Below are positions 31,416 through 59,747 of a stretch of 64,000 nt of DNA, one piece after another. Made by a program: the position numbers and the translations under genes. Where the stretch lies: contig OY970067.1 in NCBI GenBank assembly GCA_963705305.1, forward strand, positions 3,424,001-3,488,000, written 5' to 3'. Below the pieces are notes generated by a model. The model was not told where the DNA came from, did no database searches, and saw only the letters and a program-made list of their open reading frames with translations. The first letter of the stretch is position 1. Every line of letters begins with the position of its first letter. The DNA is from an uncultured Methylomirabilota bacterium (GTDB lineage Bacteria; Methylomirabilota; Methylomirabilia; Methylomirabilales; 2-02-FULL-66-22).

Positions 31416-31537
31416 CCGGGGAGCCGTCCGGGGATTGGCCTTGACTTTGAGCCCGGGTTGGACTAGAAATCCACCCCACGAGCGCCGATGGACAGCGAGC
31501 GGCGCCGGAAGGAGGATGCCGGCAGAACCGAATAGGC

Positions 31538-31742
31538 AAAGCTGAGTGGTCCCACCGGGGGACCCTCGAGGGAAAATGGTGCATCCCTGGCCAGCCGAGA
31601 TCGACGGCTAAGGGAGACTCCATTGCTGCCCCGCAACTGTGAGCGGCGTCGAGAAATCTGCACAGATCACTGTTCCGTGCAGTACGGAACGGGAAAGCGC
31701 AGAGAGCACGCGGAGCCGCGAGCCAGACACCTGCTCAGCTTT
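31538..31742 (+). promoter_or_regulatory. Cobalamin riboswitch 1
   Basis: AGGGAA..TGGTG, GCTGCCCCGCAACTGT, CACTG, GGGAA, GAGCCAGACACCTGC (B12 box); P1 AAAGCTGAG/CTCAGCTTT; upstream of btuF. Confidence 0.9.
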
Positions 31743-31826
31743 CCGGGTTTTACGATCCTTCCGCGGGGAAGGGCAGCCCACCATCTACCGGTCCTCCGGT
31801 GATTGCCCGGGACTGTTGGATTCTGG

Positions 31827-31860
31827 AGCCTCGTTCCCCCAGTGGGATCGGGGCTTTTTG
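31827..31860 (+). terminator. Terminator, probably the riboswitch expression platform
   Basis: AGCCTCGTTCCC/GGGATCGGGGCT stem plus T run, between the aptamer and btuF. Confidence 0.7.
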
Positions 31861-31868
31861 TGTCTTAG

Positions 31869-32118
31869 CAGGCTGCTGAAAAAGGCCCATCTGCTGCGTT
31901 GGCCCGCTCGGGCACTCGTTGCGGCGTACCGGAAGTACGCCTCACTTGGCCCCGGGTACCCATCCCGAGGGATGGGTGAGGCCGCCTTGCCGTTCGGCGG
32001 GCCCTTCGACAAGCTCAGGGCGGTGAGCACAGTCGAACCGCTCACGGTCCCGAGCGAAGTCGAGGGACATCTGGACCTTTTTGAGCAGCCTGGGGGAAAG
32101 CGGGTTTTCAGCACCGTG
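31869..32118 (+). mobile_element. MITE family A copy 1
   Basis: CAGGCTGCTGAAAAA left end, internal TTTTTGAGCAGCCTG, degenerate right end TTTTCAGCACCGTG; TTAG duplicated at 31865 and 32119. Confidence 0.85.
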
Positions 32119-32133
32119 TTAGAGGGAGGCGGC

Positions 32134-33067
32134 GTGCAGCAGTCGCGGATTCGATACATTTGGCGGCTGGCGGGATTGATCCTCTGGCTGTGTTTCGGAG
32201 CGATGCCCGTCCGGGCCGCAACCGTTCCCGACATGCTGGGACGATCGGTGATTGTCCCCGCCGGCCCGCTGCGCGTCGTCTCGCTGGCGCCCAGCCTCAC
32301 GGAGACGGTATTTGCCCTGGGGCGGGGAGACTGGCTGGTGGGGGTGACGGACTACTGCGATTATCCCCCGGCGGCGCGGCGCAAGCCGAAGATCGGAGGG
32401 CTGGCCGCGCCGGATCTGGAGCGCATCCTCCAGGCCCGGCCCGATCTTGTCCTCACCACCGCCGAGGGGAACTCCCGCGAGACGCTCCTCCGGCTGGAGC
32501 GGCTGGGCGTCCCCGTCTTTGCGGTCACCCCCGAGGGGTACACCGGCATTCTCCGCTCGATCGAGCGCCTGGGGGACGTCCTCGACGCCGAGTCGACGGC
32601 CGCCGCCCTGCTGCGGGACATCCGGGGGAAGATCGACGCCGTCCGCCGTCGTGTGGATGGGCGGCCGCGGCCGCGGGCACTGTTTCTGCTGTGGACCGAT
32701 CCCCTGATTGCCGCCGGGCCGGGGACATTCATTCACGATCTTCTGGAGATGGCGGGAGGTTCGGAACGTCCTGCCGGCGGGCGGCGTGCCCTACCCGCAC
32801 CTTGGCTGGGAAGAGGTGGTCGCTCGTGCGCCGGACGTCATCCTGGTAGCGAATCATCGGGAGCGCTTCGGGGCGGCACCGGCCGCTCTAGAGTCCGTCG
32901 ACGCCGGATGGCGGACCTGGCAGAGCATCCCCGCCGTCCGGGCCGGCCGGCTGGTGGCCGTGCCGGCCGACCCGCTTCTCCGGCCCGGCCCGCGGGTGGC
33001 GGAGGGAGTGGAGCGGCTGGCAGCGATTCTCCACCCCGACCTGTTCGAGCCGGAGCGGACGCCATGA
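32134..33067 (+). CDS. btuF: Cobalamin-binding periplasmic protein; extra base near 32760
   Basis: Signal peptide; RVVSLAPSLTE, VGVTDYCDYP, PDLERI; continues in the +1 frame as RNV...YP...EEVVARAPDVI...RPGPRVAEG to TGA 33067, overlapping the btuC ATG. Confidence 0.88.
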
Positions 33068-37064: not shown

Positions 37065-38287
37065 GTGGCTAGCAGGCTGCTGAAAAAGGCCCATCTGCAG
37101 CGTTGGCGTGCTCCCGCGACGCTGCGGCGTACCCGTCAGTACGCCTCGCGTCTCGGATCGCGCGCCGCCTTGCCGTTCGACGGGCTCACGGTCCCGAGCG
37201 AAGTCGAGGGACATCTGGACCTTTTTGAGCAGCCTGGACAAAGGCGAATTCTTCAGCGTCTTGCTATGCGCCGGCGGAGCGAGGGGGGAGGGCTCGGGTG
37301 GTGGGCCGTCGTGTCGCTGGGCCTCCACGGCGCCCTTCTGACCGGCGTTCTCTCGCTGACTGCTCCGGCGCCCATCACCCACCCGGCGAGCCTGCGGGTG
37401 CGTCTGCTGCAAGAGGCGCCCGAGCCCCCGAGGCTGGCGCCTGCCCCAAAGGCCGCCGTGCCCGCGCCCCTGCCGCCTGTGGCCGGGAAGCCGGTCCTGC
37501 GGAGAGCGCCGGTGCCCGGCCCGACCAGGGCATCGGCAGCGGCCCGCCCGCCGGTTCTGGCTGCTCCACCGAACGACCCGCCCGAGGCGCCCCGGCCGGA
37601 GACCGCTGCATCGTCCAACCAGGGGGAGATGCCGGGCAGTGCGCCGGGGCCGCCGGCTCAAAAACACCTCGTGGGTGCCGAGGCATCGCCCGCGCGGGGG
37701 AGCCCGGGACGCGGGGCGGGCGGTCGCGTTGAATCGCCAGGGGGATCCGGGGAGCCCGCCGCCGGACCCGTCCCGCCCGAGGTGCCTTTGCCGGCTCGCG
37801 CGGAGATCGGTGCGTCAATCGTTCGCCTCGTCCCGCCGGGTAGCGGCGGGATGGGCGGGGTCGGATTCGGGGCGGCCGGCCACGGATCAGGGGACGGCGG
37901 CAGGGGTGGAATGGCCGGGGCGCTCGCGGCGGCGGGTCCCGGAGGCCGGGGGACCGGAAGCGGCGCCGGCGGTCTGCTGGCGTCCGGCGGCGGGGGGGAG
38001 GGCCAGGCGGCGGGGCCAGCCTGTCCGATCTCCTCCGCACGATCCGCCGCCGGATCGAGCAGGCCAAGAGTTACCCACAGGGTGCCCGCGAGCGGGGATT
38101 GGAGGGGACGACGGAGCTGCGCTTCCGCATCGCCCCGGACGGCCGCGTGGCGGCCGTGGAGATCGTGCGCTCTTCCGGCTCGCCGCTCCTGGACGAGACC
38201 GCCAAAGCCACCATCCTGCGGGCGGCTCCCTTCCCCGTGGTGGCGGGCTGGATCCGCATCCCGCTGGCCTTCCGTCTCACGGAATAA
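37065..38287 (+). CDS. tonB: Energy transducer TonB; in-frame MITE at the 5' end and a frameshift probably at the G7 run 37992-37998
   Basis: TM with SLGLH, Pro/Gly-rich linker, TonB_C in the -1 frame (IEQAKSYPQGARERGLEG...RSSGSPLLDE); alternative start ATG 37266. Confidence 0.8.
37073..37263 (+). mobile_element. MITE family A copy 2
   Basis: Same ends as copy 1; flanked by CTAG (37069) and CTAT (37264). Confidence 0.85.
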
Positions 38288-45185: not shown

Positions 45186-45399
45186 GAGGCTCTGAAAGAC
45201 CTGGCTTCACTCAGGCTGCTGAAAAAGGCCCAGATGCAAGGCGCCGTCACCCATCCCTCGGGATGGGTACCCGGTGCCCATCCGCAGGATGGGTGCAGGC
45301 GCGAGACGTCCTTTGTGCGTACGGCGCAGCGCCGTGGGAGCGCGGGGGGTACCCGTCCCCAGGACGGGTCCCTGCAGGTGGGTCTTTTTCAGCAGCCTG
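45186..45399 (-). mobile_element. MITE family A copy 3
   Basis: Family A ends; TCAG duplicated at 45182 and 45400, the latter containing the hpnD stop; three ACCCRTCC-type hairpins inside. Confidence 0.82.
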
Positions 45400-49728: not shown

Positions 49729-49881
49729 CAGGCTGTTCAAAAAGGCCCATCTGCTGCGTTGGTCCGCTCGGGCACTTGCTGCGGCGTACTGGAAGTACGC
49801 CTCACTCGGCCCTTTGCGGACCGCCTTGCATCTGGGCCTTTTTGAACAGCCTGAGCGAAGGGGCAGACTTTCCGCATCCTG
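49729..49881 (+). mobile_element. MITE family A copy 4 (minimal form without passenger modules)
   Basis: CAGGCTGTTCAAAAAGGCCCA...TGGGCCTTTTTGAACAGCCTG perfect 21-bp inverted repeat, then degenerate TTTCCGCATCCTG; starts right after the permease TAG. Confidence 0.85.
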
Positions 49882-59475: not shown

Positions 59476-59747
59476 CAGGATGCTGAAAAACCTGTCTTCG
59501 CCCAGGCTGCTCAAAAAGGTCCAGATGTCCCTCGACTTCGCTCGGGACCGTGAGCGGTTCGACTGTGCTCACCGCCCTGAGCTTGTCGAAGGGCCCGCCG
59601 AACGGCAAGGCGGCCTCACCCATCCCTCGGGATGGGTACCCGGGGCCGAGTGAGGCGTACTTCCGGTACGCCGCAGCGAGCGCCCGAGCGCGCGGGGCAC
59701 CCATCCGAAGGATGGGTCTCGGCAGATGGGCCTTTTTCAGCAGCCTG
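59476..59747 (-). mobile_element. MITE family A copy 5
   Basis: Nearly identical to copy 1 in reverse, with one additional hairpin; TTAG duplicated at 59472 and 59748, the latter containing the dnaA stop. Confidence 0.88.

Follow-up and report, generated by a model that had tools for sequence, protein, structure and literature searches.

The two 39-nt inserts, called A and B, that interrupt several copies of a MITE in the window (the whole 64-kb stretch of DNA that was analysed) are probably members of a widespread family of non-autonomous double-hairpin elements that are mobile separately from their host. We show that these units reach new sites by insertion at a G^C step (the caret marks the insertion point), with no duplication of the target, and that box b of another unit is among such sites, which generates nests. 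We also show that members of the family are found across phyla and, in frame, in coding genes.

Insert states of the MITE in the window

The ~125-nt MITE is found five times in the window and insert states 0, 1 and 2 are all represented (Table 1), just as a first-pass annotation of this DNA had described them, with all the sequences that it quoted present. A and B each measure 39 nt, and their junctions are ambiguous by 1-2 nt (C or GC). In copy 1, B is inserted at G^C in the box TCGNCNNG^CTC of A. The nest that had been placed there at 31991-32068 is real, its coordinates being one base off, and the 78 nt run from 31990 to 32067. The hairpin pattern proposed with it has 2 matches in the window versus 0.02 expected, and the MITE terminal repeat CAGGCTGCTGAAAAAGG has 13 (up to 3 mismatches) versus 0.06 expected. 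Copy 1 is bordered by TTAG on both sides (31865-31868 and 32119-32122), its 26-nt tail finishing in a third terminal-repeat-like box, and copy 3 bears several small ACCC..GGGT hairpin modules.

Table 1. Positions of the MITE copies and of their inserts in the window.
Feature	Position	Strand	Content
MITE copy 1	backbone 31869-32092, with 26-nt tail to 32118	+	A(B) nest
Outer unit A, left part, copy 1	31990-32002	+	CCGTTCGGCGGGC
Inner unit B, copy 1, first-pass boundaries	32003-32041	+	39 nt
Inner unit B, copy 1, structure-based boundaries	32002-32040	+	CCCT..ACCG
Outer unit A, right part, copy 1	32042-32067	+	TCACGGTCCCGAGCGAAGTCGAGGGA
Separate small hairpin module, another hot spot of MITE copy 1	31958-31977	+	ACCCATCC-CGAG-GGATGGGT
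MITE copy 2, one-insert state	37073-37236	+	
Intact unit A (39 nt), MITE copy 2, at CCTTG^CATCTGG	37173-37211	+	
MITE copy 3, unit site empty between 45236 and 45237	45212-45399	-	
MITE copy 4, bare 125-nt backbone, unit site empty between 49828 and 49829	49729-49853	+	
MITE copy 5	backbone 59503-59747, tail 59476-59502	-	CTAA flanks, A(B) nest
MITE copy 5 inserts	A 59593-59605 and 59528-59553; B 59554-59592	-	

Logan contigs of a public run, X1, reproduce 31961-32029 and 32000-32069 with zero differences, this run being possibly the source sample and hence not independent. Among public runs, the locus is present only in X1 (share 0.32). In the other runs, the MITE ends occur at very high summed depth, and joints that skip the nest or hold B only are not assignable to this locus.

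The surroundings of copy 1 were also inspected. A cobalamin riboswitch lies at 31527-31752 (78.4 bits, E = 2e-19), and the MITE stands between it and the downstream open reading frame; in same-genus genomes, the riboswitch is followed by the downstream gene within ~100-350 nt, without MITE. An Rfam scan of 31500-32500 (E up to 10) returned the cobalamin riboswitch only, with no match on the MITE or the units. Comparing the locus with 20 same-genus genomes, we found flanks of only 70-79% identity and, at this place in the relatives, no MITE.

The host MITE and its other small modules

The source genome, a single 5.65-Mb contig of 66% G+C, contains 125 MITE loci, counted from terminal-repeat pairs and from BLAST searches with two backbone references: the site is empty in 93, A stands there alone in 22 and B is nested in A in 10. 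The 125-nt host element has the classical features of a MITE, i.e., terminal inverted repeats (CAGGCTGCTGAAAAAGG), target duplication, many copies and no coding capacity, and its empty backbone folds far better than shuffled sequence (z = -10.6). It reaches ~27 nt past the 125-nt backbone, up to the third terminal-repeat-like box TTTTTCAGCATCCTG (32093-32118 and 59476-59502). The four nucleotides that precede it are CTAG, CTAA, GTAG or TTAG in 72 out of 105 cases, and they are repeated 26-27 nt past the backbone, behind the tail, in 32 out of 105. From these letters, the end repeats look like a 4-bp YTAR target duplication, which is typical of IS5-group elements. A quick scan of terminal-repeat pairs for an autonomous IS with the same terminal repeats gave only neighbouring MITE pairs enclosing host genes.

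Several side observations concern the MITE itself. Other tiny hairpin modules that it hosts measure 18-23 nt, follow the pattern ACCCxxCC-loop-GGxxGGGT(A/G)C and are found in the window at 31958-31977, 45245-45375 and 59690-59715. They occupy at least four further hot spots, including backbone positions ~25-35, ~75 and ~82-91, and a MITE has 0 to 3 of them, single, nested or in tandem. Changes in one arm of their stems are compensated in the other (ATCC/GGAT, GTCC/GGAC, AGCC/GGCT, GCC/GGC). Across the 125 MITE loci, 32 of which have none, 182 blocks of this kind were delimited by the aligner. At locus L004 of genome G010, a MITE copy has its central hairpin replaced by the half-unit-like GGTCGACAGGCTCACCACGAGCGG and bears in addition an A unit at site 100. 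In Desulfobacterota-type MAGs (loci L034, L041, L048, L054, L109, L124), the 5' part of a repeat (..GGCTGTCGGAAAACGCCCATCTGC..GGCGTTGCC..TGCGGCGTA..) resembles the 5' part of the MITE, with a unit inserted at CATCTG^C; judging from this resemblance, the host MITE family itself may cross phyla. Contigs matching the MITE ends (31866-31965, 32044-32111) reach summed depths in the thousands in wetland, sediment and soil metagenomes, and thus the MITE family is very abundant in these environments.

Structure of the 39-nt unit

The two inserts had been annotated as hairpins. The conserved structure is a double hairpin of layout a-b-a'-c-b'-c' and not a simple one, and the free 39-mers are not unusually stable. 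Two boxes of 11-12 nt, b (TCGAC-NN-GCTC) and b' (GAGC-NNN-GTCGA), are conserved and mutually complementary. What had been taken for an 8-nt loop pairs with both flanks, its first half with the 4 nt before TCGAC (a/a') and its second half with the 4 nt after GTCGA (c/c'). These segments of 4-5 nt pair and covary. Of the 106 distinct units, 85 have full c/c' complementarity, where shuffling gives 14 on average and 24 at most; for a/a', the figure is 73, versus 30 on average and 45 at most with shuffling. Over 105 aligned rows, all four c/c' pairs show compensatory double changes, in 22 to 43 cells each, counts that are inflated by the shared descent of subfamilies, and the variable a/a' pair is GC in 32 rows, CG in 28, AU in 13 and UA in 11. 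The covariation score is 0.237 versus 0.084; it is reached by none of 500 shuffles, and slid controls stay at or below 0.095. The b/b' helices are fixed by the search pattern and, being invariant by construction, bring no covariation evidence.

Read on either strand, the layout is the same, which suggests an element at the level of DNA. As a free single strand, A does not exceed shuffled sequence in folding stability (-6.6 kcal/mol, z = 0.13), and B and the 78-mer do so only moderately (z = -2.07 and z = -2.10, respectively).

Target site and nesting

With structure-based boundaries, the unit has a G on its left and a C on its right in every empty/filled pair: TTG^CAT in the MITE of the source genome, GGG^CTC in A, ACTCG^CTG in the MITE of the same-genus genome G002, ARG^CTC in the nests of other phyla and TTG^C in heptamer arrays. 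No target duplication was seen in the empty/filled pairs of the 39-mers, just the 1-2-nt ambiguity (C or GC). The preceding base is G in 61 of the 106 units and the following base is C in 91; this flanking preference may partly reflect a fifth base pair. In other phyla, nests reach a depth of four, and there is also a second insertion point, behind GTCGA.

Units outside this MITE

The MITE backbone is present in 19 of the 31 relatives searched and in 0 of 3 genomes of another family, f4. We ran the fixed-spacing pattern TCGAC-N2-GCTC-N8-GAGC-N3-GTCGA over 251 genomes of the phylum. It has 26 matches in the source genome and 22 in G002, and it occurs in 10 of the 14 genomes of g4, a genus of f4; the reversed control pattern has one match in all 251 genomes. 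Hence, units are present in g4, where the MITE was not found (0/3 searched). A-type and B-type units stand there in unrelated contexts, and B-type units are again nested in another element at ..GAG^CTCA...

We examined 15 units in 14 loci of G002. Twelve are in the same MITE, where they occupy backbone position ~49 (ACTCG^CTGCGG) and never position 100, one of them being a tandem pair; for three truncated MITE copies, the insertion site was read from the flanking letters. Two others are located in heptamer arrays, and one lies in frame in an E2 acyltransferase, in the linker that connects its E3-binding domain to the catalytic one. Genes are also entered in other relatives. Compared with the source genome, a 66-nt nest adds 22 aa to YbeY in G012 and a 63-nt nest adds 21 aa to ThyX in G006, with the frame intact in both cases. 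The extra residues are wholly unit sequence, the source genome genes are uninterrupted and the flanks are conserved. The G012 nest is found as well in G015, in the linker of an Amidase_3 protein.

Beyond the phylum, a slightly stricter pattern matched at least 118 stretches in contigs of species-representative genomes, from at least nine phylum-level groups as given by the record titles. Among the matches listed are Verrucomicrobiota, Thermodesulfobacteriota and 'Deltaproteobacteria', Planctomycetota, Nitrospira, Acidobacteriota and Omnitrophota, as well as Zixiibacteriota, Binatia, Ignavibacteria, Kiritimatiellia and Gammaproteobacteria. We also found 16 units in 13 predicted viral contigs, and B is identical at 38 of 39 positions to a unit of a Solibacteraceae MAG. 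An unpublished genome, G044, supplied loci L015, L029 and L179, and no claim hangs on these alone.

It had been proposed that the 39-mers are separate from the MITE and insert precisely into other hairpin-forming elements. The other MITE site of G002, the genomes devoid of the MITE, the genes and the many phyla bear this out, with clean insertions in other hairpin-forming repeats. A census of the 39-nt architecture finds it widely, with the MITE-borne copies of the source genome at one MITE site only. On the other hand, the intrinsic frame preservation that had been suggested from the length of the units finds no support here. All unit copies of the source genome are non-coding, and selection would leave only in-frame copies in genes, so the latter do not demonstrate such a property.

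Ancestral state and insert history

In the source genome, 29 of the 30 delimited unit-bearing blocks are at backbone positions 97-101, and the 30th is the misalignment of a deleted MITE copy whose letters read the same CCTTG junction. At one locus, a tandem A adjoins an A(B), and further unit-bearing sites are three degenerate MITEs. Outside MITEs, we found only a decayed nest at 1627180, a single unit at 2397319 and lone half-units at 1588558 and 1260868.

The relatives give a polarity to these states. Three MITE-rich genomes of the same genus, G005, G013 and G014, contain 100, 87 and 137 instances, respectively, of the empty junction GCCTTGCAYCTGGRCC and none of the filled one; empty and filled junctions number 63 and 31 in the source genome (filled being the right junction) and 28 and 1 in G002. 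With 324 empty junctions versus 0 filled in the three relatives, the short MITE form is, on the evidence of these junctions, the ancestral one, and the long forms are putative gains in the source lineage. A MITE backbone tree, which had been advocated as a means to polarise gain and loss, was also built. It includes 107 of the 125 loci, 11 having been dropped for fewer than 110 aligned backbone bases and 7 for an alignment score below 130, three internally deleted A(B) copies among the latter. One clade with 99% support is informative: it groups the two A(B) copies of the window with an empty one, among bare 125-nt copies. The tree is otherwise poorly resolved (2 of 103 inner branches are well supported), which prevents the counting of gain and loss events. 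A unit confined to one MITE position, together with an ancestral long form, had been named beforehand as what would speak against mobility. The first is nearly what we find in the source genome; the second is contradicted by the junctions, and relatives carry the modules elsewhere.

Within the source genome, we saw no direct sign of fresh transposition, every MITE-borne unit being at the same site. B is found in three left-arm variants of A, namely GACAGGC (7 copies), GGCGGGC (the window's 2) and CCATTCGACGGGC (1), and the first two variants also occur without B; this pattern is suggestive of repeated entry of B, or of conversion. Among the ten A(B) copies, pairwise identities are 0.979 for B, 0.959 for A, and 0.936 and 0.963 for the rest of the MITE, so that these copies are too alike for B to be dated against its host. 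Most of them share a related backbone with the same small modules, and hitch-hiking on MITE transposition thus explains most of the ten. Since the units occupy a single MITE position, the three states of the window are explicable by hitch-hiking or conversion, without fresh transposition, and spread within this genome looks mostly passive, through MITE hitch-hiking or conversion between copies.

It is even possible, although it is not the history that we favour, that homology-driven exchange alone produced the states of the source genome, gene conversion or nuclease-triggered homing having brought A into empty sites and B into A, with no fresh transposition since one founding event each. Besides the single site, several observations fit such an exchange. 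Both backbone subfamilies include copies with A (17 of 49 for r1, 15 of 76 for r2), and A is almost unclustered on the backbone tree, where its presence needs 20 changes versus 25.1 with shuffled labels (1 of 300 shuffles is as low). Eight of the ten B copies are identical in sequence although their backbones differ, and the MITE flanks would provide ~100 nt and 25 nt of homology. However, exchange leaves unexplained the units found in unique genes, in heptamer arrays and at other MITE sites of relatives, and also the covariation of a/a' and c/c'. We consider it compatible with separately mobile units, as the within-genome phase of their history.

That no dedicated enzyme exists, and that units are copied by template switching at the fork between hairpin-forming repeats, with quasi-palindrome correction restoring complementarity, seems improbable to us. 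The nesting at the shared box b could be read as microhomology, the targets are other hairpin- or repeat-forming DNA (the MITE, heptamer arrays, other units) and no linked transposase was found. Nevertheless, the insertion junctions of ybeY and thyX are without evident homology, stems of 4-5 bp with loops of 11-12 nt are poor substrates for spontaneous fold-back, and boxes that are letter-conserved across phyla, next to short stems that covary, look like protein recognition.

There is very little to commend the idea that the units are not selfish DNA and that selection has multiplied them as sites with a function for the host (protein-binding sites, terminators or RNA elements). The strong conservation of the boxes across phyla and the position of MITE copy 1 between a cobalamin riboswitch and a gene would agree with it; against it, the architecture is the same on both strands, as for a DNA-level element, unrelated proteins have copies within their coding sequences, units can be present in one species of a genus and absent in another, and no Rfam family matches. 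Least credible of all, and strongly disfavoured, is a history in which the long A(B) MITE is ancestral and slippage between the 1-2-nt junction repeats gave the A-only and empty forms by stepwise precise deletion: the C or GC at both junctions could let slippage excise a unit precisely, and internally deleted MITE copies do occur (e.g., genome positions 1521001, 2056141, 4971731), but the junction counts of the three relatives, the empty site 100 of G002, in which the unit occupies another backbone site, the grouping of the window's A(B) copies with an empty copy inside a bare 125-nt clade and the clear gains in conserved genes all oppose it.

Candidate enzymes and proposed mechanism

In the explanation that we favour, that of separately mobile double-hairpin units, A would have entered one site of this MITE in the source lineage and B would then have entered A. 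The composites would have multiplied mainly passively, through MITE transposition and conversion between MITE copies. Primary insertion would proceed through a unit folded as a single strand or extruded as a cruciform, and a structure-specific enzyme acting in trans would cut and join it at exposed G^C steps.

The source genome has 16 Y1_Tnp (PF01797) and 6 GIY-YIG matches. Five of the latter are small GIY-YIG loci, and the sixth, in a 626-aa frame, is presumably UvrC. The first-pass annotation had expected a GIY-YIG or Y1/RAYT gene flanked by the modules. In this genome, no full unit flanks a Y1 gene (0/16) or a small GIY-YIG gene (0/5), and a single GIY-YIG gene has a half-unit just upstream. 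The nearest box motif is 198 nt away for one Y1 gene and at least 1.5 kb away for the others. Among the relatives compared, the presence of Y1 does not track that of units, and G013 has strong Y1 genes and zero units. Likewise, giy4-like GIY-YIG genes give no signal in two genera, being present in 13 of 17 genomes with units versus 13 of 18 without. Orientation relative to replication does not differ either (21:11 for unit-bearing MITEs versus 57:36 for empty ones, Fisher p = 0.83).

The half-unit just mentioned, GGCCCC-GAGCGATGTCGA-GGGGCC, stands alone directly 5' of the start codon of a Pfam-confirmed GIY-YIG gene (1260572-1260859). Boxes with such stems are specific, since stems of at least 4 bp accompany 71 of 323 box occurrences versus 4 of 402 reversed control boxes. 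In the order, strict boxes are found within 250 nt of 3 of the 29 GIY-YIG homologue loci, and looser unit-like repeats were seen by eye at L158, L159, L160, L165, L167 and L179. Near the 29 loci (up to 250 nt), 11 box motifs occur in 14.2 kb versus 6 in 66 kb further out, an excess that is weak because it comes from only 3 loci and because the near zones are more intergenic. The link between GIY-YIG genes and units, drawn from gene neighbourhoods, is thus only suggestive.

Some features of these loci were noted in passing. Two small GIY-YIG genes are situated at tRNA-Asn (L157, G000:C1:1259072-1262359, and G000:C1:1350953-1351600), and one tRNA-Asn GIY-YIG gene has the intact tRNA on one side and a duplicated 5' tRNA fragment on the other. 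The gene with the half-unit adjoins tRNA-Asn fragments that are split by small TCCGCC..GGCGGA hairpins. Around a third small GIY-YIG gene (G000:C1:902700-903750), another palindrome family, CATTCCGGC-loop-GCCGGAATG, is present in at least five copies.

As for the trans-acting enzyme, we tentatively put forward a small GIY-YIG nuclease, and give the same limited weight to an enzyme of some other kind. Insertion by host replication or repair only is slightly less plausible, and a Y1/HUH transposase is unlikely. A more ambitious reading would make the unit a new class of pan-bacterial, horizontally spreading element, among the smallest known, which a small structure-specific GIY-YIG nuclease carried on tRNA-linked cassettes would cut and join at G^C in extruded hairpin loops, the a/a' and c/c' stems serving as recognition structure; we regard this as speculative and rather doubtful as a whole.

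It has long been asked how REP-like and smaller palindromic repeats move. For this question, the 93 empty, 22 single and 10 nested sites of the source genome form a natural series within one sequence context, to which the relatives give polarity. The structural signature (two conserved boxes and two covarying short stems) and the target rule (G^C, no duplication) are directly usable in assays. Moreover, the near letter-for-letter recurrence of units in distant phyla and viral contigs, together with the in-frame lengthening of housekeeping proteins, makes them a widespread source of small gene insertions in bacteria, one that is apparently unnamed, and a source of spurious 'hypothetical proteins'.

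Comparison with known systems

Full-text literature searches found no description of the 39-nt unit family. The units resemble the REP/REPIN-RAYT system, as Bertels & Rainey 2011 (PMC3116915) and Di Nocera et al. 2013 (PMC3733652, which also mentions the Rickettsia palindromic elements, RPE) present it, in that they measure tens of nucleotides, are palindromic and non-autonomous, create no classical target duplication, and lie between genes and sometimes inside them. According to the same papers (PMC3116915; PMC3733652), a REPIN consists of two inverted REPs that form a larger hairpin; here, the half-units are inverted with b and b' complementary, but their stems are unlike and the spacer is zero. 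The GTAG or CGTC tag described there for REPs (PMC3116915; PMC3733652) is absent at the ends of the 105-unit consensus, in which CGTC appears only when the variable NN is GG. Stems are short and variable and loops long and conserved in the units, whereas the reverse is the case for REPs as these texts portray them (PMC3116915; PMC3733652). A RAYT (Y1_Tnp) gene flanked by repeats, which is a feature of REP/REPIN systems, was not found among the 16 PF01797 matches of the source genome. The units fail these defining features of REP/REPIN, having neither a GTAG or CGTC tag nor a unit-flanked RAYT in this genome. The 39-mers were rejected as classical MITEs because they leave no target duplication in empty/filled pairs.

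PATE of the IS200/IS605 type have subterminal hairpins at both ends, no duplication, a short target sequence and an orientation bias relative to replication. In the units, we saw two short hairpins, no duplication and a G^C target; orientation did not differ between unit-bearing and empty MITEs, and no TnpA is linked in the source genome. Short GC-rich double-hairpin elements, apparently mobile in intergenic DNA and genes, are said to have been described by Paquin et al. in 2000 in the mitochondria of Allomyces. To our knowledge, these fungal elements have no conserved loop boxes; they are organellar and unrelated in sequence to the units.

The RPE are reportedly palindromic selfish DNA of ~100-150 bp inserted in frame in genes, as Ogata et al. 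are said to have found in 2000. The in-frame units in YbeY, ThyX, the Amidase_3 protein and the E2 linker of relatives, none such occurring in the window, recall them. The RPE differ in being longer, confined to Rickettsia as far as is known and of another sequence family, and we know of no nesting or cross-phylum conservation among them.

In behaviour, the units are also like the cyanobacterial SDR (small dispersed repeats), tiny hairpin repeats that Elhai et al. reportedly described in 2008 as nesting within each other and within MITE-like repeats and heptamer arrays, and as occurring in conserved genes, with no target duplication. Our units also nest and occupy MITEs and heptamer arrays. 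They probably differ from SDR in sequence family, and in size (39 nt versus reportedly ~21-27 nt). The units are further distinguished by spanning many phyla and by the covariation of their a-b-a'-c-b'-c' layout.
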